From a virus, in the IMG/VR virus record IMGVR_UViG_3300017605_000706, positions 1 through 64,000 of that record: DNA of 64,000 nt. The stretch is one strand, 5' to 3'. The position numbers and the translations under genes were made by a program. How positions within the stretch are numbered: the stretch's first letter is position 1; the number at the start of each line of letters is the position of its first letter. Under the pieces are notes generated by a model. The model was not told where the DNA came from and ran no database searches. It saw only the letters and a program-made list of their open reading frames with translations. Below are positions 24,543 to 51,279 of this stretch, piece after piece.

Positions 24543-24794
24543 ATGCTTTTGCTTCAGCAATGGCAACAGACCGAAAATTTCGAGCCTGATAATCCGACGC
24601 AGGCGCGTTTCGAGACGTATTTCGCTCTTCCGGGGGGTCATGTATCGACCTATTGGAACGGTGAAGCTGTTACAGGCGGCACCCTCATGGGTCCCGTCGA
24701 CACCGCTGTTGACATGGTCAAGTCTAACTGGAAGATCCTCGGCGCAATCGGCCTCGTGGCCGGCGCGCTACTCGCTTACAAGCATAGCCGCTAG
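24543..24794 (+). CDS. small tail-anchored membrane protein
   Basis: C-terminal WKILGAIGLVAGALLAYKHSR. Confidence 0.6.
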   Translation: MLLLQQWQQTENFEPDNPTQARFETYFALPGGHVSTYWNGEAVTGGTLMGPVDTAVDMVKSNWKILGAIGLVAGALLAYKHSR

Positions 24795-25091
24795 GTACGC
24801 GCCTTTTGCAGCTGCGTACGCTACCTCGTCCTCGATCGCGTGGATCTCAAGAGGGACCTCATCGAATGACTTGAGGCGGTGCTGCGCAGCTAGCTCTACG
24901 ACGTAGAGCCACTCCGATCGAGGCCACCCAGACCGAATGCGGTGGCGCTTATCAGTGCCTGGCTCAAGCGCGTCTACGTTGTAGAAAACGTTCCCGGCGT
25001 AGTTGATGCGCAACGTCTTCATCAGGGCCATCGCAGCCGTTATCTGGCCGGGGCTCTCAACCAACGTCCAGTCAAGTCCGCGATAGATCAT
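24768..25091 (-). CDS. PWEIH-module family protein
   Basis: IYRG; SFDEVPLEIHAIEDEVAYAAAKGAY. Confidence 0.7.
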   Translation of the reverse strand: MIYRGLDWTLVESPGQITAAMALMKTLRINYAGNVFYNVDALEPGTDKRHRIRSGWPRSEWLYVVELAAQHRLKSFDEVPLEIHAIEDEVAYAAAKGAYLAAMLVSE

Positions 25092-25401
25092 ACGCGTCGG
25101 CCGCTGCCTTGAACGTGTCCTCGTCTTCGATCAGCATCAGTTCGATCGGGTACGCCAACTTGGCGTGTAGCTGACGATTGAAGAACACAGACTTAGCTTC
25201 AACCGTCTTTCTAAGATACTCGATCATGTACACGCTGGCCAGTACTTCGATGGGCCAAGTCATGTCCTCCGCCGTAAGCCTTGCAACGTACTTTAGCTCA
25301 CCATCGATCACTGCGTACAGCGCCGGGCCCTTCTTGGCGCCACTGCGAAACTTGTCGCCGCTATACACGGCAACTTCGATTCCTCGCCAGCTATACCCCA
25401 T
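25072..25401 (-). CDS. PWEIH-module family protein (divergent)
   Basis: SWRG; YPIELMLIEDEDTFKAAADAY. Confidence 0.6.
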   Translation of the reverse strand: MGYSWRGIEVAVYSGDKFRSGAKKGPALYAVIDGELKYVARLTAEDMTWPIEVLASVYMIEYLRKTVEAKSVFFNRQLHAKLAYPIELMLIEDEDTFKAAADAYDLSRT

Positions 25402-25860
25402 CTAAAGCGCGCTTCCGAAGTAAGCGTCAAGCGCCGCCTCGAGCGCGGTGGGATCTAAGATCATGGCGATCTCCCATGGGATACCTGAAGGCGTCACGGT
25501 TCCAGGCTCTGGCGCCCAGATCGACAAGATGAATTCGTCGAGGGTCAGCTTGGCCCAATGAGGGGTCATCGCCTGGAATGGCAGGACTGTTTCGCAGCGG
25601 AGCAGCTCACGTGCGCTATGCTTTGCGTTGGCAGGCCGCGCGTACAAGTACTCTAGTCCTATAGCTTCATCTTCATCGATACTCAAATGCCATAGCGTCC
25701 CCAGGGCCAGAAACGAGATCGTACCCAACCGAGCGTGCATGGGCCACGTAGCGCGGCGCGCCCACGTACTAGACGACTCCGCGAACAGCTCACCATCTCT
25801 ATCGCGCGAGCAGCGCATGAGCTTGCCGTACAGGGTATCGAACGGGTCACGCTTGGTCAC
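25402..25860 (-). CDS. PWEIH-module family protein
   Basis: PSGIPWEIAMILDPTALEAALDAY. Confidence 0.65.
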   Translation of the reverse strand: MTKRDPFDTLYGKLMRCSRDRDGELFAESSSTWARRATWPMHARLGTISFLALGTLWHLSIDEDEAIGLEYLYARPANAKHSARELLRCETVLPFQAMTPHWAKLTLDEFILSIWAPEPGTVTPSGIPWEIAMILDPTALEAALDAYFGSAL

Positions 25861-25866
25861 ACGCCC

Positions 25867-27753
25867 TCAGACCTGCGGCACCTTCGATTTATTCACGAGG
25901 CTGATCGCCAACCTCCACTCTGTATCGGTCAGGCCAGTCTCAAGGTTTGTCACTAGTCCCTTGGCTATCTCGTTAGATTCCGCTAGCTTAGGCAACTCTT
26001 GCGCGGCGCGGCGTTCCTTGCCGGACTTCGCTTGCCGTACCGCGGGCACGCCTAGCTTAGCGATCTCTTGGATCATAGATCCGATCATGGCCTGGCGGAC
26101 AACCGTCTCCGTTACCAGATCCGCATCAGGCGCCGTGACAGCTGCGTCTACGCTCGCTGCGATATGCTGGCGCTTCTCCGCGATCACGTCAGCGATGCGT
26201 CGCTCGAGAGGGTGATCAGCCACGAGTGTTCTGATCTGACACGCGCGCGTTTGCCCGATTCTGTGAACGCGGTCGCTCGCTTGGTCATTCTCACCGGGCG
26301 TCCAAGCCTGATCCACGAACATTAGCTCGCTCGCTCGCGTGAGTGTCAGCCCTGTTGATCCTGCGCCGATCGTCAGTGCTACCCCTCTGAGCTTTCCCTC
26401 TTGGAACGCTTCTGCGACGGCTTGCGCTTCTTTGACACGCCGACCGTTCACGTAGTAGTCACCGCCACCGAGCACAGTGCCCCAGAAGGCGCGTTTGCAC
26501 AGCACTTCGATCGGCGCTCTGTGCGCCGAGAACACGATGAGCGGCTGTTCCTCTTCCTCAGCTTCTTCAACAACAGTCAGCATCGCCGGGATCTTGCTGG
26601 CTGCTACCTGAGCGCGCACGCGCGACATGTCGTAGAAGTCCGGCATGACGCCGTCGAAACTCTCGAGATCGATCCCGCGTGCTTGCAAAACGGTCACGAC
26701 TTCGTCGAGGGCTGATAACGCCTCCATGTCGATCTCGACGAACGTGTCCGTGTAGATCTTGTCCGGCAAGTCGGTCAGTACGTCTTCTTTTCTACGGCGC
26801 AGCATGACGCGGCGCAGGCGATCAGCCACTTCAGGCTGCGCAAAACCCCACGCCGCGCCTGCGCCTTGTTCGCGGCCGTCGTGCAGCTCGAGGAAGTTCT
26901 TGTAGCTACCAAACGCTTCGTCAGCAGCGCCGATATTCTCTAGGATCGTCCACAGCTCACCAGGACGGTTCAGGAGCGGCGTACCTGTCAACGTCCAAGC
27001 GTACCCGCCACGAGACCGCGCAAGGCTGGCCAGCGCTCTCCATCGCTTGGTCCGCTTGGCCTGAAACGACTTGACGTAGTGCCCCTCGTCGGCAATGACG
27101 GTCAAGCCTTCCGGGATCGGATAGATCGACTCGTAGAGCGCAAGCTTCTCGTCGTCTACAAGGCGCTCGTAGTTCAGGATCACGACTTCGGACTTGCCGG
27201 GCCAGCGAAATGTCTTCGGGATCGTCGCCTTGAGGTCAGGGCGCCACTTGTTGATCTCAGCTCGCCACGTACCGCGGACGTTGGCAGGGCAAATCACGAT
27301 AGCGCTGCCGTAGGGCAGAGCTGCAAGTGCTTGACATGATTTACCTAATCCCATCTGGTCGGCCAGTAGCGCCGAGCTTCTCGAAGCCAGCCAACGCCCG
27401 CCCTCTCTCTGGAACGGGTACAGCGACAGACCTCGCCGGGACGCGATCTCGTCGAACCAGATGAGCCTCTTGTCGGCTTCAGTCCTGATTGCCGACGCGG
27501 TCTCTACGAAAGCCTGAACGCGCTCGGCCACGGCGCGGTCAACACGTAGCGCGACGCTCGATAGCTGCGTCAACCGCTCGAGGATCGCGACCGCCTTGTC
27601 GACGGCTACTTCATAGCGGTGCGACTCGCTGTTCCAGTGCGCGCCGTCGAGAGCGCGCCGGTACGCCTCGTACTTCGGCTTGTCCAGGTTCGAGTGCGAG
27701 ATCTGGATCAGCCCGTCGACGTACGTGACGTTTACGGAAGGGGGTCGTGACAT
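25867..27753 (-). CDS. SNF2-family (HARP/SMARCAL1-like) helicase
   Basis: YPFQ, ADQMGLGKS, DEGH, LTGTP, RRRKEDVL..LP.K, GLTL, QASDRVHRIGQ. Confidence 0.9.
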   Translation of the reverse strand: MSRPPSVNVTYVDGLIQISHSNLDKPKYEAYRRALDGAHWNSESHRYEVAVDKAVAILERLTQLSSVALRVDRAVAERVQAFVETASAIRTEADKRLIWFDEIASRRGLSLYPFQREGGRWLASRSSALLADQMGLGKSCQALAALPYGSAIVICPANVRGTWRAEINKWRPDLKATIPKTFRWPGKSEVVILNYERLVDDEKLALYESIYPIPEGLTVIADEGHYVKSFQAKRTKRWRALASLARSRGGYAWTLTGTPLLNRPGELWTILENIGAADEAFGSYKNFLELHDGREQGAGAAWGFAQPEVADRLRRVMLRRRKEDVLTDLPDKIYTDTFVEIDMEALSALDEVVTVLQARGIDLESFDGVMPDFYDMSRVRAQVAASKIPAMLTVVEEAEEEEQPLIVFSAHRAPIEVLCKRAFWGTVLGGGDYYVNGRRVKEAQAVAEAFQEGKLRGVALTIGAGSTGLTLTRASELMFVDQAWTPGENDQASDRVHRIGQTRACQIRTLVADHPLERRIADVIAEKRQHIAASVDAAVTAPDADLVTETVVRQAMIGSMIQEIAKLGVPAVRQAKSGKERRAAQELPKLAESNEIAKGLVTNLETGLTDTEWRLAISLVNKSKVPQV

Positions 27754-28100
27754 GCAGAGATGAAGGCTTGCCTAGCAGCCGCGTACGCGATCTCGTCTTC
27801 TATACGGTGGATCTCCCAGGGAACGCCGTCAACAGGGTGGCCTAGCGGCTGCCTCATCAGAAAAGCGTCGTCGTCACGCGGTATGAACATCGTCCAATCA
27901 GCTCCAGCCCAGTGCAGCAGGCCCCTCTCGACCAAGATAGGCGTGAAGCCCTCCCTCTGATCAATCTCATGAGGTGGGCAGCAATCGGTAATATACGTGT
28001 ACGAAGTGCCGTCAAAGACGAGCTTTAGGCCGATCAGATTGTAGCACTGCGCCAGCCGAATGCAACCCGCTGTCCACGGTGTTATCTGTACGATATTCAT
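27732..28100 (-). CDS. PWEIH-module family protein
   Basis: PVDGVPWEIHRIEDEIAYAAARQAF. Confidence 0.75.
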   Translation of the reverse strand: MNIVQITPWTAGCIRLAQCYNLIGLKLVFDGTSYTYITDCCPPHEIDQREGFTPILVERGLLHWAGADWTMFIPRDDDAFLMRQPLGHPVDGVPWEIHRIEDEIAYAAARQAFISACHDPLP

Positions 28101-28471
28101 AGACTTCTCAGGTAAGCTTCCCGCGCCGCCGCGTACGCAAAGCCGTCATCGATACGGTTGATCTCCCACGGAACGCCGTCTACGGAATGCTTGCCGTCGA
28201 TCACGGGGTGGAACCCGGGGTAGTAACTCACGACTTCGAGCGTGAATCTGTCAGCGCTCAACGCGTATCTCTGGTCGAAGACATACAAGCAGCCTCTGAT
28301 CCGCGTGGCCACCTCAGCGTGAACTCGGTATTCGAGGCTTAGGCGCTCTAGGAGCGCGCTGTTGTCGTTAGATCCTGTAGAGAAGCAGCGCAGCCACGCG
28401 CGTCCGTGATCACGGATCAACAGCGTGTCTGCGGAGCGCCACCCTGATATCCTTGTGGGGAACCTCGTCAT
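28097..28471 (-). CDS. PWEIH-module family protein
   Basis: SVDGVPWEINRIDDGFAYAAAREAY; ATGA coupling. Confidence 0.75.
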   Translation of the reverse strand: MTRFPTRISGWRSADTLLIRDHGRAWLRCFSTGSNDNSALLERLSLEYRVHAEVATRIRGCLYVFDQRYALSADRFTLEVVSYYPGFHPVIDGKHSVDGVPWEINRIDDGFAYAAAREAYLRSL

Positions 28472-28893
28472 GCGCACGATTCCACGAAAGCCTTGCGCGC
28501 CGCCGTGCGTGCGATCGGATCTGTGATCCCGTGAATCTCCCACGGTACGTCGTCGACTGGCCTGAACCCTTGTACGACAGATGCGTGGTCTCGCCAGATG
28601 TCGTTGACGTTTTCAAGAGGGCGCGCCATGGGCATACTTACAGCCATGACAGGGCTCCACCAGCCTTCTTCCGCTGCTGCAAGGTCTGTCGCACGGGCCG
28701 CTCGTACGGGGGAGAGGGCCCAACACGCTTGGTCGAACATGACTACGCCCCGATAGATGAGCCCAATTGGCTTGTCCGGCCTGTCTGTCCGCAGCAGCCC
28801 CGGACTCATCCACACAATCTCACACTGACGACAAAACAAGCGGTCGTCAGCCGTCCAAGACGGCCAAGTCTTTAGTCTTTCTGTCCGCATCAA
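28468..28893 (-). CDS. PWEIH-module family protein
   Basis: IYRG; PVDDVPWEIHGITDPIARTAARKAF. Confidence 0.75.
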   Translation of the reverse strand: MMRTERLKTWPSWTADDRLFCRQCEIVWMSPGLLRTDRPDKPIGLIYRGVVMFDQACWALSPVRAARATDLAAAEEGWWSPVMAVSMPMARPLENVNDIWRDHASVVQGFRPVDDVPWEIHGITDPIARTAARKAFVESCA

Positions 28894-28951: not shown

Positions 28952-29860
28952 ATGACTGACGCCGAAGCGGCTGCGATCCTCAAGTCGACGACCGATAACG
29001 TCGAGGCGATGTACAATACTCTTGTACAAACCAGCCGTTCCGCGTCGATTTTGCTCCAAAACGACAAGGCGTACTGCAACGAGCTGCGGCAGTACAACCT
29101 ATACGCCATGGGTACGTACCAGTGGCAGCTCTCGATGATTCAGAGCGCCAAGGCGTTGGGCGTTCAGAACGTTCCTGCCGCGCCTAAGTTCCCGACACTA
29201 TTCAAAATCGCCGGGCAGTCGGGCCAAGACAGCCTGAACATCCAGTGCAGCAAGCTTTCCGGCCTCGGGGGCCTTAACGACGACGGCACCGTCAAGCGTG
29301 AAGCCATCGAGGTCGTCACATCGGACGCGCAGCTCCTCAACCCGAACGCGCCGGTTCCGACGTTCAACGTCGACCCTAACCAAGTCTTCGCCAAGGTTCC
29401 AGGCCTTGGCATCGAGCCGATCACGGTCGTCGTGATCGTCCTCGTAGGCGTCCTGATCACGATTGGCCTAGCCTACGCTATCAAGTTTGTTGAGGCACTT
29501 ACGGGTCAGGGCATTGAGAAAGAGCGCACGCAGCAGGCGAAGCTTCAGATCGCCGCGTTCAACAGTACGATCACAGCGCGGTCCGACTGCTTCAACAAGT
29601 GCCTGCAGACGGGCCAACCCGCCTCGGACTGCGCGAAGACTTGCGAAGCGGCCTTCAAGGCCGACATTCCGAGCATACCTGGCGGCTATACTACGATGTC
29701 CGTCATCGGCGTAGCTGCTGTCGCGATCGGCGCCTTCTGGCTGTGGGGCAAGCGCAAGAAGATCGCAGGCGCCGGTCGACGGTTCGTCTCGGACGAAGGC
29801 GACGACGAAGATCCTATCGAGCTGACACGGTCGATGCGCCGCACACGAGGGTACGCTTGA
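28952..29860 (+). CDS. putative virion membrane protein (two TM segments, Cys-rich region)
   Basis: ITVVVIVLVGVLITIGLAYAI; CFNKC/CAKTC; VIGVAAVAIGAFWLWGKRKK. Confidence 0.6.
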   Translation: MTDAEAAAILKSTTDNVEAMYNTLVQTSRSASILLQNDKAYCNELRQYNLYAMGTYQWQLSMIQSAKALGVQNVPAAPKFPTLFKIAGQSGQDSLNIQCSKLSGLGGLNDDGTVKREAIEVVTSDAQLLNPNAPVPTFNVDPNQVFAKVPGLGIEPITVVVIVLVGVLITIGLAYAIKFVEALTGQGIEKERTQQAKLQIAAFNSTITARSDCFNKCLQTGQPASDCAKTCEAAFKADIPSIPGGYTTMSVIGVAAVAIGAFWLWGKRKKIAGAGRRFVSDEGDDEDPIELTRSMRRTRGYA

Positions 29861-29861
29861 G

Positions 29862-30233
29862 ATGAGTCAGATTCCTGAAGACATCGACGCGATTGTTGTC
29901 GTTTTTGTGATGAAGGGCTGCGGCCACTGCGAAGACTACCTGCCGACGTTCAGGCAGGTAGCCCGTAACTGGAATCGTACCGTGCCTGCGTACGAGATCC
30001 GCGTCGATAAGATGACAGAAGAGCAGACGCGCTTCGCCGACCGCATGAAAATTGAAGCGACGCCGACGACGGTAGCCGTCAATCGTCATTCGGGCGGCGC
30101 GATCCGTCTCGAGGGCGCACAGAGTCCTGAAGCGGTAAATTACCTGTTTCAACGGGCGCACGCGCACAATTACGCAGTCGATCAGGCGCGGCGCAAATGG
30201 GCGAAAATGCGCGCTGAAGGGCGTATTAAGTAG
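29862..30233 (+). CDS. thioredoxin-like protein
   Basis: VVVF..GCGHC, I.ATPT cis-Pro motif. Confidence 0.8.
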   Translation: MSQIPEDIDAIVVVFVMKGCGHCEDYLPTFRQVARNWNRTVPAYEIRVDKMTEEQTRFADRMKIEATPTTVAVNRHSGGAIRLEGAQSPEAVNYLFQRAHAHNYAVDQARRKWAKMRAEGRIK

Positions 30234-30670
30234 TGACCACCAAAGACGACATCAAAGGCATCTTCAGACAATGCCTTCCCGCGCAGCTGTACGTGCACAT
30301 TGATGACATTGTCGACCATCGCAAAGTCCTGGTAAGAAGCGAATCAGGCGTCACGCTGGTCGCTGAGCCTGATTGGGTGTACCAAGCGCGTCACTGGCAC
30401 TATTTCGTAGGCCTTTGCAGCGTAGTTTGCGCCACCGACGTCGCGTCGGTCATGTACTGGACGTTCAACGGAGGCGAACAGGGGTTCGCCCAAACGCGCG
30501 TGAATGCTTGTGTCACCGACACAGTGAGTGCGATACGCAGGGGCCTTACATTGATGGAGGCCGAGCCCGCCTCGTTCAGGCATCCCTTGAATCTGCCCGT
30601 TGAGATCTATCGGATTGAAGATCCAGACGCGGCTATCGTCGCAGCAGACACGTACCGGCAGTACCTATGA
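30233..30670 (+). CDS. PWEIH-module family protein (divergent)
   Basis: LNLPVEIYRIEDPDAAIVAADTY. Confidence 0.6.
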   Translation: MTTKDDIKGIFRQCLPAQLYVHIDDIVDHRKVLVRSESGVTLVAEPDWVYQARHWHYFVGLCSVVCATDVASVMYWTFNGGEQGFAQTRVNACVTDTVSAIRRGLTLMEAEPASFRHPLNLPVEIYRIEDPDAAIVAADTYRQYL

Positions 30671-30804
30671 AACTGGTTCCGCTTCTTGTGGCCGCTTTGA
30701 TCATGTTTGGAGTCCCGTGGTTGACGGGTCTCGGGCTAGGGCTCACAAGCGCAACGTCTGCAAAGATAGGCGTCAGCGCGATCCTCGCGAGCTTGTTGGT
30801 CTAC

Positions 30805-31104
30805 TTATCGGTCAAGCCCGCGCGTAGTACCTAGCGCGAATTCATCTTCCATCGCAAACTCATCCACGGACGAAGCTCTGCTAGAGCTTCGCCGGGTAGA
30901 ATTGATCTCGTCGGTGATCTGCTCGAGACGGTCGCCGAGGTCATCCATGCTCGCGTAACACGCCGCCAGCTGGACGTCGATTGACCGGAGCTTGTGGATG
31001 ACTTCTGGTGGAAGGCTTACCTCTACTGGCGGAGGCATCTCATTGAGAGACTTCTCGACCAGAGAGATTAGACGCATAGCGCCAGACGGTAGTTTAGCCA
31101 TCAC
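30805..31104 (-). CDS. coiled-coil protein
   Basis: coupled to 31101..31436. Confidence 0.5.
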   Translation of the reverse strand: MMAKLPSGAMRLISLVEKSLNEMPPPVEVSLPPEVIHKLRSIDVQLAACYASMDDLGDRLEQITDEINSTRRSSSRASSVDEFAMEDEFALGTTRGLDR

Positions 31105-31436
31105 GTACCCCGTTTGCGGTCGCGTTCTACAATGCGCCTGAGAGCCTCAAGCGCTGAGGCAATCTTCTCAGCTAGGGCGTGGTATCTGTCAACCTGGGTC
31201 TGATTGGTCGCGATGTACTTGTCGATCATCGCAGCCATCTCTGCCCTGTGACTAGTTTCACGCTCATCATTGCTGCGCCTGAACTCGTCGATAAGCTTGG
31301 CGACGTCGTTCTTATGCGCGTCCGTGAGTTGGTTGACACGGCGCCATAGGTGGACGACTGCCCAAATCAGGACCAAGCAAAAAGCGCCTAAGACGCCTTG
31401 CGCGAGCCAGAATTTAGCTGAGAGGATTTCGGGCAT
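31101..31436 (-). CDS. holin-like protein (N-terminal TM plus coiled coil)
   Basis: QGVLGAFCLVLIWAVVHLW followed by a coiled coil. Confidence 0.45.
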   Translation of the reverse strand: MPEILSAKFWLAQGVLGAFCLVLIWAVVHLWRRVNQLTDAHKNDVAKLIDEFRRSNDERETSHRAEMAAMIDKYIATNQTQVDRYHALAEKIASALEALRRIVERDRKRGT

Positions 31437-31468
31437 GATACTGAGAGGGCCTCAGGCGCCCTCTTAGA

Positions 31469-32778: not shown

Positions 32779-32785
32779 TAGGGTC

Positions 32786-33337: not shown

Positions 33338-33338
33338 G

Positions 33339-44126: not shown

Positions 44127-44672
44127 GTGCCGCTAACGTCACCGCACTTCAGCGACAAGATCGAAGATTGGTTGCGCATCGTCCAGGCTGGCGGCGAGGC
44201 GCTGTTCACGGACAAAGACGTGCTGGATCTCGGGCCGTCCTACGGTATCGACACGTACATGTTCGCGCCCAAGTGCCGTAGCTACACCGTCGTCGAGACG
44301 GCGCCTGACGTCCTCGAGCATCTCGCCAAGCTTCAATCCGTCGTCAACTTCAACGTCGTCGTGCACAACCTCCAACGCACGCTGCCGTTCTCCGACGCCA
44401 GCTTCGACCTCGTCATGGACCTGGGTACGCTCGACAACGTCTTGGGCGGTGTCCTGCCATACCAAGAGTGCATGCGCGTCCTGCGCCCTGGAGGCCTGTT
44501 CCTCTGCGCGTTCGCGAACCAGGAAGTCTTGGGAACGCGCTTTTCGGAGTGTGGCGACGAAGAGCGCCGTACGTACCACGAGCTTGTTGCGCTACTGACC
44601 GACGCGGGCGCCAAAGACGTCGTCGGTGCGCGAGTCATGCAGGCTCGTGCGGGCCTGATTGCGAGGAAGTAG
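44127..44672 (+). CDS. class I SAM methyltransferase
   Basis: VLDLGPSYG, LPFSDASFDLV, RVLRPGG. Confidence 0.8.
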   Translation: MPLTSPHFSDKIEDWLRIVQAGGEALFTDKDVLDLGPSYGIDTYMFAPKCRSYTVVETAPDVLEHLAKLQSVVNFNVVVHNLQRTLPFSDASFDLVMDLGTLDNVLGGVLPYQECMRVLRPGGLFLCAFANQEVLGTRFSECGDEERRTYHELVALLTDAGAKDVVGARVMQARAGLIARK

Positions 44673-45974
44673 ATGACTAGCTACGATTTGGCCGTTCATT
44701 CCGGCGGATACGTCGGTCTCACGTGCGCGATCCATTTCGCAAAGGCAGGTAAGCGCGTCATCTGCTACGATCCCGATAGCCGTGTCGTTGACGGCATCAA
44801 CTCAGGACAGCCGAAGGCCGGCGAATTCCTGGGTTACCTCGGCAATACGTACCCGCGCGAGAACCTGATTGCCACGAGCACCTTCGAAGAGACTCTAAGC
44901 TGCGACGTTCATATCCTGGCCGTCCCCAGTGAAAAAGATGACGAGCCTTGGATGTTGATTGTTGAGGGCTGCCTCAGCATGATCGCGCGTGAGCGCGCTG
45001 GTAAGAAGACGCTTGTCATCATCGAGAGCACGCTTCAGCCGGGCGCCGTTGACGGCTTTATCAGGGCCAACTCGAGCCTGATCTCGGACACGCTCGAGAT
45101 CGCTGTCTGTCCAAGGCGCGACTGGTTCGCTGATTCTAATAAGAATCTCAGTAGCTTACCTCGCGTCGTCGGCGGCTACACGCCAAGTGCGACTGATTGG
45201 GCATGCGAAGTCCTGTCGACCGTCACGCCGCCCGAGAAGCTCATGAAGACGAGCTATCGAACTGCCGAAGTCACTAAGGCGCTAGAGAACGCGCTCTTCC
45301 ACGCGCCCATCGCGTTGTGCCACAGCCTTGCGCTAGCCTACCCCGAGCTGGATATCGCCGAAGCGGCGCGCCTCGCAGCGACGCACTGGCGCTTCGAGAG
45401 CTTCGGCGGTCTGCACCTGAACTTGGGCACCTCTGGAAGATGTGTGCCAATCGGCTCGAAATATTTGCGCGACGGCGCAGGTGATCAGATTGTCGATCTG
45501 CTCGATTCTGTCCTCGATACCGAAGACGAGATGCCCGAGGCCGTCGCCCAGGCGATCACGCGGCGTATAGGGCCTGACGCGCGCGTATTGATCCTCGGTG
45601 TCGCGTATCGGCCTGGGTTCCGGGACGCCGGCATGTCGGGCGGGCTACGCGTAGCCCGCGCGTTCATGAGCCCCGTCAAGATTGACTTCGCCGATCCCGT
45701 CTTCGCCAATTACGAGATCTGCGACTTAGCGCGCAAGTACGGCCTTCAGAACTTCGAAATCGTCGACGTGGGTGAACTGCACGAAGAGCGTTTGGCGACG
45801 TATGCCGCTGTCATCTTGGCCACACCGCACGCGCAGTTTGCGAACCTGCCTGAGCGCTTCACGCGACTAGGCCAAGTGCTGTTCGACGCGCGCGGCGCGT
45901 GGCTATCCCAGAGACAAACGTTCCAAGATCGTAGTATACTGTACTTGAACGTTGGCTCACCGGGATGGCGTTGA
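44673..45974 (+). CDS. UDP-glucose/GDP-mannose dehydrogenase family (WecC-like)
   Basis: GYVGL, IESTLQPG, AE.TK..EN, GRCVP, LGVAY. Confidence 0.8.
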   Translation: MTSYDLAVHSGGYVGLTCAIHFAKAGKRVICYDPDSRVVDGINSGQPKAGEFLGYLGNTYPRENLIATSTFEETLSCDVHILAVPSEKDDEPWMLIVEGCLSMIARERAGKKTLVIIESTLQPGAVDGFIRANSSLISDTLEIAVCPRRDWFADSNKNLSSLPRVVGGYTPSATDWACEVLSTVTPPEKLMKTSYRTAEVTKALENALFHAPIALCHSLALAYPELDIAEAARLAATHWRFESFGGLHLNLGTSGRCVPIGSKYLRDGAGDQIVDLLDSVLDTEDEMPEAVAQAITRRIGPDARVLILGVAYRPGFRDAGMSGGLRVARAFMSPVKIDFADPVFANYEICDLARKYGLQNFEIVDVGELHEERLATYAAVILATPHAQFANLPERFTRLGQVLFDARGAWLSQRQTFQDRSILYLNVGSPGWR

Positions 45975-45977
45975 GAT

Positions 45978-46358
45978 ATGGCTAACCGCCCAGGAATCAC
46001 CGAAGCGAGCCAGCGCGCGCAGGAACGCGTACGCGCGACAGTGACCACACCTCGGAGTAGCATGGCTAAAGATTACGTATTCGACGCAGCTCGTTTTGCA
46101 GGCGAGCGTTCTGACCCAGACACGCATACGTACCTCGTCGAAATTCATCAAGCAGGCGAGACTGTGTTCACCAACCGTGTCGACGCCCTCAGCGTCGAAG
46201 GCGCGCTAAGCGCAACGCGCCAGCGCCTCGACAGCTTGTCGCTCGAAGACCGCAAGAGACTCGTCGGCGACGCGCCGTACGAGATCCAAATCTCTCGCCG
46301 ATTCAAAATCGTTCCCAAAGTCGTCCATATCGTCGTAGATACCGAGGAAGTGACCTGA
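45978..46358 (+). CDS. hypothetical protein
   Basis: ORF within the operon. Confidence 0.55.
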   Translation: MANRPGITEASQRAQERVRATVTTPRSSMAKDYVFDAARFAGERSDPDTHTYLVEIHQAGETVFTNRVDALSVEGALSATRQRLDSLSLEDRKRLVGDAPYEIQISRRFKIVPKVVHIVVDTEEVT

Positions 46359-47419
46359 TGTCGTCGAGCGGTTGTAGCACAAAGCGCCCCAGTTCTGCCG
46401 CGTTGGCCCCAACCAAGCTGCGCCTCGTAGTTACAGGGGCAAAAGGCTTTGTGGGATCGATCCTGTCGCTACGCGCTGTCGAGCGCGGTCATAGCGTTCT
46501 CGCGCTCGATAACGAGTCGCGAGGCCTGAACCCGATCGGTGCCAAGATAGGCGACTCGTACCAGAAATTCGACTGCATGCAGGGTATCGCAGAGGCGGTC
46601 AAGACACGCGGCTGGGATCGCATCGACGCTGTCGTGCACCTGGCCGCTGCGACTGGCAGCCTTGAACGCCCTCTCGATGAGCTGCTCGAGTTCAACGTCG
46701 GCATGACCCAGCACGTCTACACTGACGCGCTCGCGCTCGGCGCCAAGACGTTCCTGTGGCCGACGACAAGCCTCGCGCTAGGCGTACCCGATAGCCCCTA
46801 CGTAGAGTCCAAGGAGCAAGCACTCCGCTGGCTGCTCCAAGTAGACAAGCAGGCGCGCATCTCACAGCCCGTGCGCTTCTTCAACATGACTGGCGCATAC
46901 AAAGGCCTGACCGAGCGCCGGCTCAATGAAGTGCACATCCTACCCGTGATGCTACAGAAGTATCAGGCACGCGAGCAGTTCGTCGTCAACGGTGGCGACT
47001 ACGCGACTGTAGATGGTAGCCCCAGCCGAGACTTCACGAACATCGTCGACGCCGTCGACACGCTGCTAGACATCGCTGAGAACCGCGCTCGAGGTAAAGT
47101 TGATCAGCCTCGCGCCAAGGACGAAGCCGTCTGGCTGGGTACCGGCCAGAGTACGACGGTCCTCGAGCTGATCAAGATGTTCGATCAGTGGGTAGGCGCG
47201 CTTGACTACAAGATCGGCCCACGGCGCGCGTTCGACTGCGGGTCTCTGATTGTCGAGCCTACGCAGGCCTCGCAGTTCAAGGCCATGCGAGGCGGCCTCG
47301 TACCCGTGCGCATCTCGGTGCGCGATGAGCTAATGGCGCTCATGGAAGACCCCGCAGCGGTCGCAGCTGAAGAGCCTGTCACAGAGACGGTCTTAAATCG
47401 AGTTGTGGAGACAGACTGA
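46358..47419 (+). CDS. NAD-dependent epimerase (GalE-like SDR)
   Basis: VTGAKGFVG, HLAA, Y..SK, RFFN..GA, DGSP.RDF. Confidence 0.85.
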   Translation: MSSSGCSTKRPSSAALAPTKLRLVVTGAKGFVGSILSLRAVERGHSVLALDNESRGLNPIGAKIGDSYQKFDCMQGIAEAVKTRGWDRIDAVVHLAAATGSLERPLDELLEFNVGMTQHVYTDALALGAKTFLWPTTSLALGVPDSPYVESKEQALRWLLQVDKQARISQPVRFFNMTGAYKGLTERRLNEVHILPVMLQKYQAREQFVVNGGDYATVDGSPSRDFTNIVDAVDTLLDIAENRARGKVDQPRAKDEAVWLGTGQSTTVLELIKMFDQWVGALDYKIGPRRAFDCGSLIVEPTQASQFKAMRGGLVPVRISVRDELMALMEDPAAVAAEEPVTETVLNRVVETD

Positions 47420-47788: not shown

Positions 47789-48505
47789 CTAGTCCTGCGT
47801 CATCAGGTTGTAGTGCGCTAGCAGCTGCGCAGCCGTCAACTCGTAGTTGTACAGCGCGACTTTGCCAACGCCGCCCTCGAAGAAGCTAGCGAAGTTTCGC
47901 GTTCCGATGCGAAACGGAGCGTCGTTGGCGACGGGTACGATCGCCAGATCACTTAGGGAGTCTTGGTCCCTGAAGACGCCGTTCTTGAAGATCTTCGTGT
48001 ATCCCGTTGGATACGCGCCACTGACGCTGACTGTGTTGACGACGAACGCGGCATGAATCCACTGGCCTGCCGTGACGGGATCTTGAAAGAACGACCCAAT
48101 GCCAAACCCGCCAGCGGGGTTGTAGCATTCACCTAGAATACGGTTTTCGCGGCCTTCTGTGTTGTTCAGGCCGTACATGCGCATGACGTATTCGTGCTTG
48201 CCCGGCGTCCCCTTGCCGAGCCAGTTTACGTACCCTGTACCGTCTTCGTCCAAAAAGGTCAGTACGTCTGGGCGCATCCACGCTTCAATCGTGAGCACGC
48301 CCGTTGTTGGGATAGACATCGTCGCGGTAGATGGGTACTCGACGTAGCAAGTTTGGCCACCGGACGGAAACAGCCATGCGAGGTCCCCGTTAGGGACCGC
48401 TGTATACCCGACAGCCGGCGACGTCCAGCCACCTGTCTCGGGGATCATGTAGTGCACGGGCCCGTCATTCAGGATGGCTAGGTCGTACAAGCTGCTAGGC
48501 GGCAT
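47789..48505 (-). CDS. LamG/concanavalin A-like domain protein (copy 2)
   Basis: LTIEAW, W.H, FKNG, FRIG, F.G..KVALYNYEL. Confidence 0.8.
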   Translation of the reverse strand: MPPSSLYDLAILNDGPVHYMIPETGGWTSPAVGYTAVPNGDLAWLFPSGGQTCYVEYPSTATMSIPTTGVLTIEAWMRPDVLTFLDEDGTGYVNWLGKGTPGKHEYVMRMYGLNNTEGRENRILGECYNPAGGFGIGSFFQDPVTAGQWIHAAFVVNTVSVSGAYPTGYTKIFKNGVFRDQDSLSDLAIVPVANDAPFRIGTRNFASFFEGGVGKVALYNYELTAAQLLAHYNLMTQD

Positions 48506-48506
48506 A

Positions 48507-49226
48507 TTAGCAGCCGCCTTGCGTCATCGTTGTGTAATGCGACGCCAGCTGCGACGTGGTCAATTCGTAGTTGTAGAGAGCGACTTTGCCGATCGCACCC
48601 TCGAAGAAGGACGCGAAGTCACGCGTGCCGATTCTGAATGGCGCGTTGTTGGCTGTAGGCACGATGTTGAGCGCACTCAGCGAATCCGTGTCGCGCAGGA
48701 CGCCGTTCTTGAAGATCCGCGTGTACCCCGTCGGGTACGCGACGCTCGTGTCGACCGTGTTGATCGTCAATGCGTAGTGAATCCATTCGAAAGGTGTCAC
48801 GGCGTCTTGGAAATACGACCCGACGCCCAAGCCGCCGGCTGCATTGAAACAGTAGCCGGAGATCCGATTGTCTCGGCCCTCACTGTTGCCCTGTCCGTAC
48901 ATGCGACAGGTATACTCTTGCTTGCCGGAGACACCTTTGCCCATCCAGTGGACGTACCCGGTGCCCTCTTCGTGTGTGAAGACGTTGACGTCGGGGCGCA
49001 TCCACGCCTCGATCGTCAAGATGCCCGTCGATGGTACCGACATCGTCGGCATGGACGCGTACTCGACGTAGTACTTGTGGCCAACTGGGAACCACCACGC
49101 CGTGTCGCAGTTGGGCATCTCAGCGAAGCCGACGGCAGGAGACATGCCGCCGCTGATTTCAGGCGTCATGTAGTGGACAGGATTGTCGCCTAGAATTGCG
49201 ATGTCGTAGAGACTGCTTGGCGGCAT
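48507..49226 (-). CDS. LamG/concanavalin A-like domain protein (copy 1)
   Basis: full-length paralog of 47789..48505. Confidence 0.8.
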   Translation of the reverse strand: MPPSSLYDIAILGDNPVHYMTPEISGGMSPAVGFAEMPNCDTAWWFPVGHKYYVEYASMPTMSVPSTGILTIEAWMRPDVNVFTHEEGTGYVHWMGKGVSGKQEYTCRMYGQGNSEGRDNRISGYCFNAAGGLGVGSYFQDAVTPFEWIHYALTINTVDTSVAYPTGYTRIFKNGVLRDTDSLSALNIVPTANNAPFRIGTRDFASFFEGAIGKVALYNYELTTSQLASHYTTMTQGGC

Positions 49227-49231
49227 GGCTT

Positions 49232-49459
49232 TTAGCACTTCTTTCTGAGCTGAACGCCCGGCTCGTACCAATCGCTGCAGAACGAGTCTGGCTCACACGG
49301 AATGAGTGGCGTACCCGCCCACTGCTGATAGTAGGCGTTTGTGCACGATCCGTAGCGACCGCCGACAGGCGCATAGAATCTACAGTTGGCGCAGCAAGAG
49401 CCGCCCTTGGGGACTTGTAGTCCAGGCTGGTGATTGCGAGGGAGCGCGAACTTACCCAT
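49232..49459 (-). CDS. small Cys-rich protein
   Basis: CCANCRFY..C..C...CSDW. Confidence 0.55.
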   Translation of the reverse strand: MGKFALPRNHQPGLQVPKGGSCCANCRFYAPVGGRYGSCTNAYYQQWAGTPLIPCEPDSFCSDWYEPGVQLRKKC

Positions 49460-49752: not shown

Positions 49753-49753
49753 G

Positions 49754-50050
49754 TCAGACTGCCCAACGGCACTTGTACTTGCGGCCCATCGCCATCGCTT
49801 TCATAGCGACGCGTCCGTGATGGAATTGTCGCGCCCTTGCCAAAGCCGTACGAATTCCTTCACAGTCGGGCCTACAGCCGTCGTTCTTGGCGACAACCGG
49901 AAACGCTAGCGTGCTGTTTAGGCGGCCAGGCTCGAGAAACGCCTTGGAGCCGCAGCGTGACAAGACGCGCCTGCGCTCCTGGCGGGTCTTAGGGGCCAGC
50001 CTTGCCCAGCCGCTGGTCGTCTTGGATCGTTGATGCTTGGCCCTAGCCAT
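49754..50050 (-). CDS. basic Cys-containing protein
   Basis: GW..LAP...R.....CG.KAFL.P....FPV....C..DC.G...A..RARQ. Confidence 0.6.
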   Translation of the reverse strand: MARAKHQRSKTTSGWARLAPKTRQERRRVLSRCGSKAFLEPGRLNSTLAFPVVAKNDGCRPDCEGIRTALARARQFHHGRVAMKAMAMGRKYKCRWAV

Positions 50051-50071
50051 ACGTGATACAATAACATAGCC

Positions 50072-50731
50072 GTGCGCATCAAAGGTAGACGGATCCTGAT
50101 CATAGGCGACTCGCTGTCCTACCCGGGTCAAATCGTAACTGACCTTACGTCGCCGAGCACAAAGAACGCGAGCGCACCCGGCGCTGTCTTGGCTAGCATG
50201 CTGCTTGATCTCGGCGCCAGCGCCGTTCGCATCAACGCTAAGGTCGGCCGCTCCGCCTACAACTTCTTCAAGAGTGAGCAGGGTGATGCGCTCCTGGCGC
50301 AGGACGCCGCAGGCCATCCCGATGTCGTACTCGTCTTCCTCGGGACCAACGACAAGAGTCTCAATACGACCGAGGACAAGAAGGCTTTCACGCGTATCGT
50401 CGACGCGTTCCCCAAAGCCGACGTCTGGGGTATCGGGCCACCGCAGGCAGCCGGCTACGATCCCGTCTTCGCCACGATGCAGTCCGTCTTCGGACGCAAG
50501 CTCATCGACAGCCGGCCGTTTCTAGACGGCGCGTCGAAGGCCTCCGACGGCATTCACTTCCAACAGGCGGGCGCGCAGCTCCTGGCTGAGCGGTTGGCGA
50601 TCGCGCTTGCAGCTACGCCATCACCGTGGCTATCGTACGCTGTCCTGGGAGCCCTGGGGGCGACCGGGATAGGCTTGGCCTATGTTACACTAACACGGCT
50701 AAAGGCCAGGAAGCAACTGAAATCACAATGA
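50072..50731 (+). CDS. SGNH/GDSL hydrolase, tail-anchored
   Basis: GDSL, GTND, DGIH; C-terminal TM. Confidence 0.8.
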   Translation: MRIKGRRILIIGDSLSYPGQIVTDLTSPSTKNASAPGAVLASMLLDLGASAVRINAKVGRSAYNFFKSEQGDALLAQDAAGHPDVVLVFLGTNDKSLNTTEDKKAFTRIVDAFPKADVWGIGPPQAAGYDPVFATMQSVFGRKLIDSRPFLDGASKASDGIHFQQAGAQLLAERLAIALAATPSPWLSYAVLGALGATGIGLAYVTLTRLKARKQLKSQ

Positions 50732-51279
50732 GACCGCCAGTTCTTCCCTTGAAGGCGACCACTCACGGCGGGTTTGCCGTAATTCGTAACGGTCCGTCAG
50801 ACGGCGCGTGCGGTACGCATCCGTACCCGTGTGTTCACCCGGGCTACGACGCTGCGGCGCCAGAAGGCACGTCGGTCTACGCGCCGATTAGCAGTATCAT
50901 TGTCGGTATCGGCGACGGAAACTCAGCGCCGTACACTGGGTATGGGCCCTACGTCGCTGAGCTACTAGGCCGAGACGGCTACTACCAATTGATTGCCCAC
51001 ATGAATCCAGGCGATTTGAGTCTGGGTCAAGTAGTCGATGAGGGCGAACAAATCGGAACCGTTAGCTCAGCGAACCACGTTCACTGGGAAGTACGCCGCA
51101 AATTGACGCCTGGGATCGGCAAGACGAACATGGATAACAACCTGGATCCGATCGCCTGGCTGACAGGCGCATACGGCTCGGGTTGGCAGTGGTGGAAATG
51201 GGGCATTGTAGCTGCGCTTGCCGGGCTCGGCTGGTACAGCTACAAGAAGTACGGCGCGGACTATTTCTTGACTAGTTGA
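50728..51279 (+). CDS. M23 peptidase, tail-anchored
   Basis: HPGYD, AHM, HVHWE; C-terminal TM. Confidence 0.8.
   Translation: MRPPVLPLKATTHGGFAVIRNGPSDGACGTHPYPCVHPGYDAAAPEGTSVYAPISSIIVGIGDGNSAPYTGYGPYVAELLGRDGYYQLIAHMNPGDLSLGQVVDEGEQIGTVSSANHVHWEVRRKLTPGIGKTNMDNNLDPIAWLTGAYGSGWQWWKWGIVAALAGLGWYSYKKYGADYFLTS

Follow-up and report, generated by a model that had tools for sequence, protein, structure and literature searches.

IMG/VR record IMGVR_UViG_3300017605_000706 (hereafter G0) is a linear sequence of 97.4 kb with a CheckV completeness of 87%, and it represents the incomplete genome of a bacterial virus with a full size of roughly 110 kb. The window analysed here covers its first 64,000 nucleotides, and the locus of interest is the span from 24.5 to 51.3 kb, which the initial annotation had described as a structural region built from about ten tail-anchored membrane proteins. 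Relatives were retrieved via the UDG-PolA polymerase; their clade comprises genomes of 100-220 kb, with three records rated 90-100% complete and two (129 and 138 kb) carrying short terminal repeats. G7 and G8 were treated as complete.

The span opens on the plus strand with an 83-aa tail-anchored protein (24543-24794; helix 65-79, then KHSR), whose anchor is kept in the orthologues of G1, G2 and G8. On the minus strand lies an SNF2-family helicase (25867-27753; Pfam SNF2-rel_dom, E 4.7e-23, and Helicase_C; PHROG 62, E 1.2e-78), which by its family matches is a predicted replication or recombination gene and non-structural. A plus-strand run then begins with a 302-aa membrane protein that has a Cys-rich loop and a charged C-terminal tail (28952-29860; transmembrane (TM) helices 157-177 and 244-266) and is without a match in Pfam and PHROG searches. 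It is followed by a thioredoxin-fold protein with a CGHC, PDI-type site (29862-30233; phmmer against the PDB gives PDI A4, E 8.2e-11), a 55-aa small membrane protein (30667-30834; hydrophobic stretches 3-20 and 34-49) and a 295-aa tail-anchored candidate wall hydrolase of SleB/CwlJ-like, Hydrolase_2-like type (31891-32778; anchor 266-283). Next come three further tail-anchored proteins: one of 183 aa with a weakly PG_binding_3-like N-terminus (32786-33337; anchor 159-175), whose family occurs in four of five compared genomes and has a paralogue at 80743-81402; one of 187 aa (33339-33902; TM 160-178, KD 2.7) with orthologues in G1 and G8; and a Pro/Ala-rich one of 225 aa (33902-34579; TM 197-216, then KKRK).

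The run continues with a plus-strand cluster of small, very basic proteins (34829-38907), about nine of which have a pI of 11-12, with termini that are poly-Arg or of the form GLGYVYxG..WKAxRRxGR. The cluster includes a lipoprotein-like signal protein (35655-36047) and a protein with three TM helices and an RGRRR end (38293-38637). Within the same coordinates, a 148-aa beta-rich core protein (36828-37274, plus strand) recurs in all five genomes compared by all-vs-all BLAST, in some of them in multiple copies; it has no family match, and an Atlas search was uninformative. Two more plus-strand tail-anchored proteins, of 98 aa (38910-39206; anchor, then NRR at the end) and 163 aa (39203-39694; TM 126-144, KD 2.0, basic tail), complete the run. 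On the minus strand, a 186-aa protein (39600-40160) carries a lipoprotein-like signal and a HELGH zinc-peptidase motif, both read from the sequence, and has no match in a PDB sequence search.

Downstream lies a nucleotide-sugar and glycan cluster (40179-47419), non-structural by its Pfam and PHROG matches, with a UDP-GlcNAc 2-epimerase, a double GT2 glycosyltransferase, two methyltransferases, a UDP-sugar dehydrogenase and an NAD epimerase; the cluster is also found in the complete relative G8 at 42-63% identity. Two paralogous LamG/concanavalin-like proteins follow on the minus strand (47789-49271; Pfam Laminin_G_3, E 1.2e-11), both matching PHROG 8510, 'virion structural protein' (E 4e-6 and 2.7e-4). 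Finally, the plus strand encodes a 219-aa tail-anchored SGNH esterase (50072-50731; anchor 186-208) and an M23 metallopeptidase of 183 aa whose C-terminal helix is rich in Trp (50728-51279). Because an SNF2 helicase and a 7-kb sugar/glycosyltransferase cluster lie inside it, the term structural region is too broad for the span, which is a mosaic; the description fails for 25867-27753 and 40179-47419. Tailspike-like genes, LamG proteins labelled 'virion structural' and M23 matches to tape-measure families, features common in tailed phages, were counted against the reading favoured below.

The initial annotation's central observation, that ten open reading frames (ORFs) end in a Gly/Ala-rich membrane helix plus basic residues, is borne out by the translations and two hydrophobicity scans. 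All ten carry a C-terminal uncharged, Gly/Ala-rich stretch of 15-23 residues followed by K/R, as in ...ILGAIGLVAGALLAYKHSR (24543) and ...LLGVLALGGAGAGTYYFIKKRKAVKNA (33902), and the stretch sits 3-18 residues from the protein end in all except 28952, which has a 36-residue tail. Obvious signal peptides are likewise missing: no N-terminal n/h/c signal was seen by eye in the ten, except perhaps in 33902, and in 50072 the SGNH GDS block already occupies residues 12-14. Nine of the ten have a single TM helix at most about 40 residues from the C-terminus and no N-terminal signal, and for these the name tail-anchored is apt; 28952 is instead bitopic, as its pair of TM helices is followed by a charged tail of 36 residues. 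In 50728 the helix contains much Trp and is of low hydrophobicity, and the G7 orthologue of this protein retains the anchor. Two further anchors had been overlooked, at 30667-30834 and, outside the window, at 80743-81402.

In total, 12 anchors were counted among 181 called proteins, where a uniform placement of single helices would give 6.4. The same script found three in a tailed control phage (94 kb, 58% GC), compared with 12-17 per genome in the clade, and orthologues only 30-45% identical retain the anchor despite differing anchor sequences. Small proteins with a pI of at least 11 number 12-19 per genome in G0, G1, G7 and G8, versus one in the tailed control, and several anchors finish in poly-Arg tails resembling those of these protamine-like proteins. 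Both the anchors (12-17 per genome) and the protamine-like proteins (12-19) are traits of the lineage, and the basic proteins of 34829-38907 are candidate DNA-condensing core proteins.

The enzyme domains assigned to the anchored proteins fared unevenly. The SGNH esterase matches PF13472 (Lipase_GDSL_2; E 4.6e-8, 34.2 bits where the cut-off is 32.9) with GDS, GTND and DGIH blocks all present, and its G1 orthologue (41% identity) adjoins the spike genes. The metallopeptidase matches M23 (PF01551; E 1.7e-13, above the cut-off) with intact HPGYD and HVH zinc-ligand motifs, and its PHROG matches are to peptidase, endolysin and tape-measure lysin domains. The SleB-like identity of 31891 is only a structural lead: its ESM-Atlas model aligns to Hydrolase_2 (PF07486) clusters (TM 0.74 over 118 residues), and an Atlas feature search scores 0.89 against a cluster with PF07486 in 15% of members, while no match was found in Pfam (E up to 0.1), PHROG or the PDB, the last searched with the family profile. 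The peptidoglycan-binding call for 32786 is weak, with PG_binding_3 reaching E 0.036 in Pfam.

The initial annotation had also recognised no terminase, portal, HK97 capsid or tape-measure gene in the 64 kb, and within the families searched this holds for the whole 97.4-kb record. Genome searches used a loose prefilter, each hallmark being represented by one to three Pfam families. Terminase_6N, TerL_ATPase and Terminase_3 (PF03237, PF03354, PF04466) gave no match across G0 and nine relatives between them, the latter including both records with terminal repeats, while control genomes were positive. The single HK97 capsid family used (PF05065) was absent from five relatives, again including both terminal-repeat records, with G0 outside that search; the single portal family (PF04860) and FtsK (PF01580) were each absent from five genomes, and no Walker A protein lies in or near the conserved block described below. 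When almost all large G1 ORFs and the G8 block were run through hmmscan against PHROG and Pfam, no head or packaging family was returned, and tube, sheath and tape-measure proteins had no match among the scanned ORFs, which yielded spike-like beta-helix proteins only. The P-loop proteins of the complete G8 genome are a primase-helicase, SNF2, a Sak4-like protein and a RecD-like helicase, with no spare ATPase, and the only conserved unassigned protein of at least 350 aa among the relatives is a coiled coil. In G0, ORFs of at least 300 aa have replication, sugar, MoxR/VWA, integrase or spike functions or are without a match, none being a head or packaging gene, and family searches agree with the earlier view of a tailed-phage-like replication module. 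The adjacent 33 kb, where terminase, portal, HK97 or tail genes would contradict the idea of a lipid-containing, possibly non-tailed virus, hold two tailspike-like genes (90.8-95.2 kb) and no terminase, portal or HK97 match. Both have a pectate-lyase (beta-helix) fold and match PHROG tail-spike families; the spikes share an N-terminal attachment domain and are accompanied by small adaptor proteins. An FtsK/HerA-type ATPase is present in most jelly-roll dsDNA viruses, and its absence here was also counted against the favoured reading.

A possible shell emerges from the relatives. Their most conserved non-replication proteins, about 234 and 170 aa long, form an adjacent pair (46-68% identity, versus 35-40% for the polymerase), and pair and polymerase occur together on 16 of 21 contigs of at least 77 kb. 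The model of the larger, ~230-aa protein (pLDDT 77) is a jelly-roll that aligns to the SPV1 major capsid protein (MCP) at Z 8.2 (rmsd 3.3, 141 aligned, Foldseek probability 0.98), and further to HHIV-2 (7.2), STIV (6.9) and HCIV-1 (6.5); the 170-aa model (pLDDT 94.7), also a jelly-roll, reaches Z 7.9 for EhV, 7.5 for PBCV-1 and SPV1, 7.2 for HCIV-1 and 7.0 for HHIV-2 and FLiP, a Z of 7-8 being the usual best score for any model in that structure search. Non-viral jelly-rolls score nearly as high (PHM 6.6-7.1, GOLD about 6), as do phage cement and tail-fibre domains. The fold comparison left out three G0 ORFs of 328-350 aa (652-1704 and, beyond the window, 70303-71316 and 84827-85813) and a conserved protein of about 320 aa in the relatives.

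The pair sits 2-10 kb from homologues of 28952, 29862 and 31891 and from the spikes, in a block packed with small membrane proteins. Specifically, 28952 homologues lie 2-8 kb from it in 9 of 29 IMG/VR loci and 29862 homologues close to it in 14 of 29, and orthologues of 31891 (40-47% identity) adjoin the block in G1, G8 and MAG contigs. Gene order differs in G0, where 28952 and 29862 are not beside the spikes, and since the pair itself is absent from the G0 contig, the capsid type of G0 is extrapolated from relatives. Capsid proteins of membrane-containing viruses head the fold matches of the pair (Z 7-8.2), and those of giant viruses are among the best; an FtsK/A32-type ATPase was not found.

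The available data lean, by a modest degree, towards a model in which G0 is part of a large internal-membrane jelly-roll virus and the span carries the membrane and core part of its virion. Such a particle would have a jelly-roll protein shell, presumably icosahedral, around an internal lipid membrane instead of an HK97 head with a tail, and the rightward run 28952-39694 together with 24543 and the pair 50072-51279 would be its membrane and core genes. About ten proteins without a signal peptide would be inserted post-translationally by their C-terminal helix, with a PDI-like thioredoxin encoded beside the Cys-rich membrane proteins, and DNA condensation would probably fall to about nine protamine-like proteins. 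The predicted topology keeps the SleB-like, SGNH esterase, M23 and PG-binding-like domains on the cytoplasmic side during synthesis, so that they could not harm the host wall while being made. Once the viral membrane forms, the enzymes would lie on its outer face beneath the shell, with their short basic tails pointing to the DNA-filled lumen. Upon infection, the beta-helix spikes may bind and degrade surface polysaccharide, and the anchored enzymes may open a local hole in the peptidoglycan, like the membrane-bound P7 of PRD1.

G0 is thus probably an unusually large membrane-containing, non-tailed virus, as the initial annotation had supposed: the idea came through the search of the adjacent genome and gained the relatives' jelly-roll pair beside homologues of the membrane proteins. 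It is supported in part, because the jelly-roll block lies off the contig and the case rests on relatives, because the scores are middling (Z 7-8) for a fold that tail fibres and decoration proteins can have too, because no FtsK/A32-type packaging ATPase was found, and because the 27-kb span is a mosaic and not a single structural module.

A different reading makes G0 a fragment of a very divergent tailed phage (Caudoviricetes), with hallmarks off the contig or too diverged, jelly-rolls serving as decoration or fibre proteins and the anchored enzymes as lysis or tail lysins. The linear, 87% complete record, the phage-like replication module, the tail-spike matches of two pectate-lyase-fold proteins, the tape-measure/endolysin and 'virion structural protein' PHROGs hit by M23 and LamG, the tailed-phage cement and tail-fibre proteins among the jelly-roll matches and the automatic Uroviricota labels of look-alike Atlas clusters all fit it. 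We nevertheless regard it as unlikely, given that terminal-repeat and 90-100% complete relatives lack terminase, portal and HK97 family matches where controls are positive, that hmmscan of large G1 ORFs and the G8 block found no head or packaging family, that G8 has no spare P-loop ATPase and that the sole conserved unassigned protein of at least 350 aa is a coiled coil. Furthermore, no part of the genome is better conserved than the jelly-roll pair, which would be unusual for receptor-binding or decoration proteins.

Whatever the capsid, the anchored proteins might act in the host membrane and not in the virion, in lysis, superinfection exclusion or envelope remodelling with the sugar cluster. 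Some actinobacteriophages are reported to encode endolysins that carry a TM domain at the C-terminus, a precedent for this role, and the SGNH and M23 genes lie apart from the main cluster, beside the glycan cluster, with M23 matching endolysin PHROGs; basic residues after the helix also fit the positive-inside rule. At least ten such proteins per genome, however, far exceed the need of a lysis cassette, no holin or spanin set was recognised, several anchors have protamine-like poly-Arg tails, and the SleB-like, 28952-like and thioredoxin genes of relatives lie between spikes and jelly-roll block, all of which makes this role improbable. A non-viral, large plasmid-like or integrative element, with wall hydrolases serving a secretion or transfer apparatus, is very improbable indeed. 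Wall hydrolases do accompany conjugation systems, G0 has a tyrosine integrase (86177-87097) and G1 a large serine recombinase, and no packaging ATPase was found; against this, VirB4, a coupling protein, a relaxase and an FtsK-like P-loop protein were not found either, the spike depolymerases, jelly-roll pair and protamine-like proteins are virion features, IMG/VR classes the records as viral, and two of them carry short terminal repeats.

Returning to the internal-membrane jelly-roll virus, one of its closest known parallels is in the Tectiviridae, where P7 of PRD1 joins a peptidoglycan-cleaving domain to a C-terminal transmembrane helix and lacks a signal peptide. PRD1, whose virion-bound lytic enzymes are P7 and P15, also shares a morphogenesis module rich in small membrane proteins and, if the particle proposed here is correct, a spiked, tail-less build with jelly-roll capsid proteins (P3 against the 170-aa model, Z 5.5). 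It differs in its 15-kb genome, protein-primed family B polymerase, double jelly-roll MCP and FtsK-type ATPase P9, whereas the present clade has genomes of about 100-220 kb, a UDG-PolA polymerase, two separate single jelly-roll proteins, four wall-enzyme types and no packaging ATPase found.

Two adjacent single jelly-roll genes, of about 170 and 230 aa, also characterise Sphaerolipoviridae/Simuloviridae (SH1, HHIV-2, HCIV-1) and P23-77, with structural matches at Z 7.0-7.2 (HHIV-2), 6.5-7.2 (HCIV-1), 5.7-6.1 (P23-77 VP17) and 5.4 (VP16). Such two-MCP viruses are tail-less, with a protein-rich membrane and vertex spikes (PMC12643093, PMC12642351). They have genomes of 16-31 kb, a packaging ATPase and mostly haloarchaeal or Thermus hosts; the relatives' pair has no sequence similarity to theirs and the large/small gene order is reversed, and the clade combines the pair with genomes of 100-220 kb and no ATPase. 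SPV1, a member of the Portogloboviridae, gave the ~230-aa protein its best match (Z 8.2) and reached Z 7.5 with the 170-aa one; it is not known to encode a recognisable packaging ATPase, and one is apparently missing here too. SPV1 has 20 kb, the genome here being 5-10 times larger, and a hyperthermophilic archaeal host without peptidoglycan, whereas the wall enzymes here imply a bacterial host; its resemblance to the relatives' proteins is one of fold at a middling score, short of demonstrated homology. With tailed phages bearing multiple tailspike depolymerases, the clade shares beta-helix spikes, their common N-terminal attachment domain, adaptors and phage-type replication, but no terminase, portal, HK97 capsid, tube, sheath or tape-measure protein was found in G0 or complete relatives within the families searched.

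The clade of 100-220 kb bacterial viruses appears to be previously undescribed, and no prokaryotic non-tailed virus above roughly 50 kb is known to us, a point likewise counted against the favoured reading. More speculatively, and with rather less confidence, it may constitute a new high-rank lineage, with two single jelly-roll proteins forming a shell over a membrane, a protamine-condensed genome without a motor and entry by anchored wall enzymes. If so, its members would exceed all known non-tailed viruses of prokaryotes 5-10 times in size, with an SPV1- or sphaerolipovirus-like shell and condensation replacing pumping by a packaging motor.

Translation of the ten open reading frames (ORFs) singled out in the initial annotation, combined with a search for uncharged hydrophobic stretches in all 181 called genes of the 97.4-kb record (G0), confirms that all of them (10/10) have a Gly/Ala-rich helix at the C-terminus with Lys/Arg residues after it, as in the tails ...LGAAVLGAVGYLAYRNYKEASQ and ...LGALGATGIGLAYVTLTRLKARKQLKSQ. 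By a strict definition, nine are tail-anchored; 28952 (ORFs are designated by start position) is not, having a strong central helix (residues 157-177), a second helix (244-266) and a charged tail of 36 residues. Two further anchored proteins are encoded at 30667-30834 and, beyond the window, at 80743-81402. As had been noted, none of the ten carries an N-terminal signal peptide that is convincing on inspection by eye, and in 50072 the catalytic GDS block begins at residue 12. Two other proteins, at 39600-40160 (minus strand) and 35655-36047, one of them with a HELGH zinc-peptidase motif, carry lipoprotein-like signals; G0 thus does employ classical export signals when required, and their absence from the anchored enzymes is the more telling. 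The 12 anchors observed in G0 compare with 6.4 expected under uniform placement of single helices, and the same script returned three, none of them on an enzyme, in a tailed control, the siphovirus RcTiptonus (94 kb, 58% GC). G0 and four related IMG/VR genomes each encode 12-17 C-terminal anchors (5/5 genomes). The anchor is retained in orthologues at 30-45% identity, while its sequence is itself unconserved, and several anchors of the relatives end in RRRRR, resembling the protamine-like proteins of these genomes.

The enzymatic domains proposed for the anchored proteins fared unequally. Specifically, the SGNH domain of 50072 (Pfam E 4.6e-8; GDS, GTND and DGIH motifs) and the M23 domain of 50728 (E 1.7e-13; HPGYD and HVH motifs) are both supported by profile and catalytic motifs, and the peptidoglycan-binding assignment is weak (PG_binding_3, Pfam E 0.036). 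For 31891, no sequence match was found in Pfam, PHROGs or the PDB; its ESM-Atlas model aligns with Hydrolase_2 clusters (TM 0.74 over 118 residues), so that a SleB-like cell-wall hydrolase is a lead only, from predicted structure. PDB sequence profile searches with the 31891 family, 32786, 39600 and two protein families of the relatives, of 230 and about 320 aa, were empty or at chance level.

The span from 24.5 to 51.3 kb, which had been read as one structural region, is a mosaic. It includes an SNF2 helicase (25867-27753, minus strand) amid members of a G0-specific family of small genes, a nucleotide-sugar and glycan cluster (40179-47419; UDP-GlcNAc 2-epimerase, double GT2 glycosyltransferase, two methyltransferases, UDP-sugar dehydrogenase and NAD-dependent epimerase) and two LamG-fold paralogues (47789-49271, minus strand) that match a PHROG named 'virion structural protein'. 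The size of the genes at 41299-47419 had made them candidates for terminase, portal and capsid, which their identity as glycosyltransferase, dehydrogenase and epimerase rules out. The cluster, of ManNAc-type nucleotide-sugar and glycosyltransferase genes, is shared with the complete relative G8 at 42-63% identity. What stands of the structural region is the coherent run at 28952-39694. Eight of its products are anchored or membrane proteins, two have the lipoprotein-like signals described above, one (29862-30233) is a thioredoxin whose CGHC site is of the PDI type (PDB PDI A4, E 8e-11), and about nine have a pI of 11-12 and terminate in poly-Arg or a common GLGYVYxG...WKAxRRxGR tag. Counted across 34829-38907, 24238-24462 and 31469-31870, poly-Arg tails or the GLGYVYxG..WKAxRRxGR end occur on about 12 small proteins with a pI of 11-12. 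Small proteins of pI at least 11 number 12-19 per genome in the four genomes with the relevant region versus one in the tailed control. An Atlas search with one ORF of the run, 36828-37274, was uninformative. The thioredoxin keeps its place next to the membrane protein of the 28952 family in relatives, and it is possible that it acts as a disulfide oxidoreductase of virion proteins, as in large eukaryotic DNA viruses.

The remainder of G0, a viral record on a single contig of 97,432 bp that lacks terminal repeats (CheckV completeness 87%), bears out the phage-like replication module that had been recognized: the left 24 kb encode an RNA ligase, primase-helicase, SNF2 helicase, exonuclease, Sak4-like ATPase, UDG-exonuclease-PolA fusion and Dam methylase. 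Beyond the window lie a tyrosine integrase and two pectate-lyase-fold proteins (90,804-95,172, minus strand) that match tail-spike PHROGs. No G0 ORF of at least 300 aa matches a head or packaging family; three of 328-350 aa are without assignment (652-1704 and, in genome coordinates, 70303-71316 and 84827-85813).

The search for tailed-phage hallmarks was extended to relatives. Eight kilobases of the window found no blastn match among 50,697 phage records, and the polymerase is only 21-25% identical to those of the nearest known phages; its UDG-PolA fusion defines a clade in metagenomes at 33-48% identity. Single-protein IMG/VR scans with the polymerase and with 31891 found nothing, and an alignment-based scan returned 54 loci, the longest contig measuring 221 kb. 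Four relatives were taken whole: G1 (101.7 kb), G2 (146.9 kb), G7 (137.9 kb) and G8 (129.4 kb). The last two are treated as complete on account of their terminal repeats (123 bp in G7, 110 bp in G8); the two complete records are IMGVR_UViG_3300019487_000004 and IMGVR_UViG_3300006880_000001. Profiles for Terminase_6N, TerL_ATPase, Terminase_3, Phage_portal, Phage_capsid and FtsK_SpoIIIE gave no match in G0 and nine relatives, with positive controls, the set of families differing between records (Phage_capsid, for example, covered five of the relatives only). An hmmscan against PHROGs and Pfam of nearly all large G1 ORFs and of a conserved G8 block found recombinases, a kinase, helicases and spikes, and no head or packaging family. 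The P-loop proteins of G8 comprise only the primase-helicase, SNF2, Sak4-like and RecD-like helicase proteins. Together, the missing hallmark matches and this inventory leave standing the initial suggestion of a lipid-containing, possibly non-tailed virus: for the families searched, the adjacent genome gave no hallmark match apart from the spike-like proteins, a class that is not confined to tails.

In an all-against-all comparison of the five genomes, the shared genes comprise a core for replication, those of the spikes, the 36828 family and a number of the window's anchored proteins; G1, G7 and G8 have in common a further block that is absent from G0 and G2. Its protein of about 234 aa (56-68% identical) is the best-conserved non-replication protein. 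It is adjoined by a 170-aa protein (about 48% identity), after which come a small transmembrane protein, one of about 320 aa and numerous small membrane proteins, including a transglutaminase-like one; a 736-aa coiled-coil protein closes the block. In public metagenome data, the larger protein forms at least 87 clusters of uniform length, all 'hypothetical' and with no Pfam family, and the smaller has 154 representatives. AlphaFold models both as eight-stranded jelly-rolls (pLDDT 77 for the larger, 94.7 for the smaller), a predicted fold that we regard as firm. The best fold match of the larger protein is the SPV1 major capsid protein (Z 8.2, rmsd 3.3, 141 aligned), ahead of HHIV-2 (7.2), the STIV turret protein (6.9), HCIV-1 (6.5) and P23-77 VP17 (5.7), and the smaller matches capsid jelly-rolls of EhV (7.9) and PBCV-1 (7.5) as well as SPV1 (7.5), HCIV-1 (7.2), HHIV-2 (7.0) and FLiP (7.0), all at Z values in a range that the fold-search tool calls common; P23-77 VP17/VP16 and PRD1 P3 also match the smaller protein. 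Jelly-rolls from outside viruses, and cement or fibre domains of phages, follow the viral capsids closely in score; a capsid role is suggested by rank, conservation and context taken together. A BFVD search with the larger model did not discriminate, its matches being a mixture of jelly-rolls from fibre and tropism proteins and from capsids of small viruses. By hhalign, the two families are unrelated to each other and the roughly 320-aa family to either, and complex prediction for the pair scored 0.00, which counts neither way.

The jelly-roll block is linked to the genes of the window. The 234-aa protein is present in eight of ten related records examined whole and on 16 of the 21 polymerase-bearing contigs of 77 kb or more, and the 170-aa gene follows it in 21 of 29 IMG/VR loci. 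Within 2-10 kb of the 234-aa gene lie homologues of 29862 (14/29 loci), 28952 (9/29) and 31891 (5/29), and the spikes and their adaptor in 4-6 of 29; the window-gene homologues show the same proximity on three MAG contigs. The complete G8 is ordered as anchored-protein cluster, spikes, 29862/28952 homologues, jelly-roll block and coiled-coil protein. The pair is absent from G0 and G2, both incomplete, and the ends of the G2 contig flank the place expected for the block. At 87% completeness, G0 would extend to about 112 kb; since its spikes lie at the right end, the block would probably fall in the missing 14 kb or so. The gene order of G0 differs from that of G8. An exact 34-mer taken from the right contig end was absent from the metagenome contigs searched, which precluded extension of the contig.

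On balance, a membrane-containing, jelly-roll-shelled virus is somewhat more likely than not, ahead of three other explanations. A very divergent tailed phage, which the spikes, the incomplete G0 contig and the limited set of hallmark profiles would allow, appears unlikely, given the complete relatives, the missing packaging ATPase and the lack of a conserved large unassigned protein. Slightly less likely still is that the anchored proteins work in the host membrane, for lysis or exclusion: the position of the SGNH and M23 genes would suit such a role, but the anchored proteins are numerous and linked to the jelly-roll block. A non-viral element, for which no transfer genes were found, is highly improbable.

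For the membrane-containing virion, we infer the following mechanism as a whole. Signal-less proteins with a C-terminal helix would be inserted only once synthesized in the cytoplasm and would keep their enzyme domains on the cytoplasmic side, which would permit bulk production of wall hydrolases without contact with the wall. The PDI-like thioredoxin may oxidize conserved cysteines of the anchored proteins in the cytoplasm. The viral membrane of PRD1 comes from the cytoplasmic membrane; were this also the case here, the cytoplasmic face would end up outermost on the vesicle, beneath the shell, and the short basic tails would point into the lumen, facing the DNA. The many protamine-like proteins and the lack of a detected packaging ATPase suggest genome condensation rather than motor-driven packaging, and the genome might form a nucleoprotein core like the condensed one described for SPV1 (PMC8459092). 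During entry, the spikes would degrade surface glycan and the anchored SleB-like, M23 and SGNH enzymes, a ready-made candidate entry lysin set, would open the peptidoglycan locally.

In mode of working, the closest likeness is to the membrane-bound lytic enzyme of PRD1, and to the two-MCP membrane viruses (sphaerolipoviruses, P23-77) and SPV1. The clade belongs to none of these groups: its genomes are 5-10 times larger and replicate with a PolA-type module, the searches detected no ATPase, and sequence similarity is lacking. To our knowledge, the known non-tailed dsDNA viruses of bacteria and archaea all have genomes smaller than about 50 kb, and tails are assumed for prokaryotic viruses with large genomes; automatic pipelines currently label contigs of this clade as tailed phages. 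Full-text literature searches turned up no account of jelly-roll viruses this large in prokaryotes, an absence rather than proof, and a 2026 review mentions only small prokaryotic varidnaviruses (PMC13598248). If the jelly-roll shell, the membrane-rich virion module and the lack of a terminase, portal or FtsK-type motor hold, a widespread clade of 100-220 kb would break this size rule. It would be the bacterial equivalent of the architectures seen in archaeal SPV1 and sphaerolipoviruses, and make motor-less entry of a large genome into a membrane vesicle a directly testable question.

Host assignment failed. MAG contigs that encode the conserved 230-aa protein are variously labelled Actinomycetes, Gemmatimonadota, Polyangiales and Woesearchaeota. 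CP070815.1, published as the 'chromosome' of a Gemmatimonadota MAG, includes two contigs of the clade that are viral throughout (2228479-2275462, 47 kb; 3658441-3719593, 61 kb); both are bounded by 100-N gaps, which looks like a binning or scaffolding artefact, not integration, and they were rejected as prophage or host evidence. No tRNA genes were found, and a sequencing-run search gave shares of 0.16 or less and listed no RNA holder.

Several further features were observed. At least 15 small proteins form a family specific to G0 and have only a C-terminal D-x-(V/I)-P-W-E-I-H-x-I motif in common (in the window at 1881-2381, 6270-7051, 18391-18882, 27732-28893 and 53507-54983; elsewhere at 71.8-76.0, 84.4 and 96.8 kb). 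The 170-aa family has D-(K/R)-P-F-E-I-H-R near residue 50; homology of the two was rejected, as hhalign links the 10-residue motif only, at a probability of 13%. The coiled-coil protein (710-810 aa; L085:14012-16222 in G8, L057:1103-3271 in G1) has conserved end domains around a long Glu/Arg/Gln-rich coiled coil; kept in four relatives beside the membrane-protein block and absent from the G0 contig, it could be a capsid-size ruler or scaffold. The clade-defining polymerase, a UDG-3'5' exonuclease-PolA fusion at 19208-22027, reaches 1100-1500 aa in several relatives, with intein- or HNH-type Pfam domains inserted. Finally, an operon of a MoxR-type AAA+ ATPase and a VWA-domain protein (55732-58178) is kept in G2 and in a viral contig inside CP070815.1.
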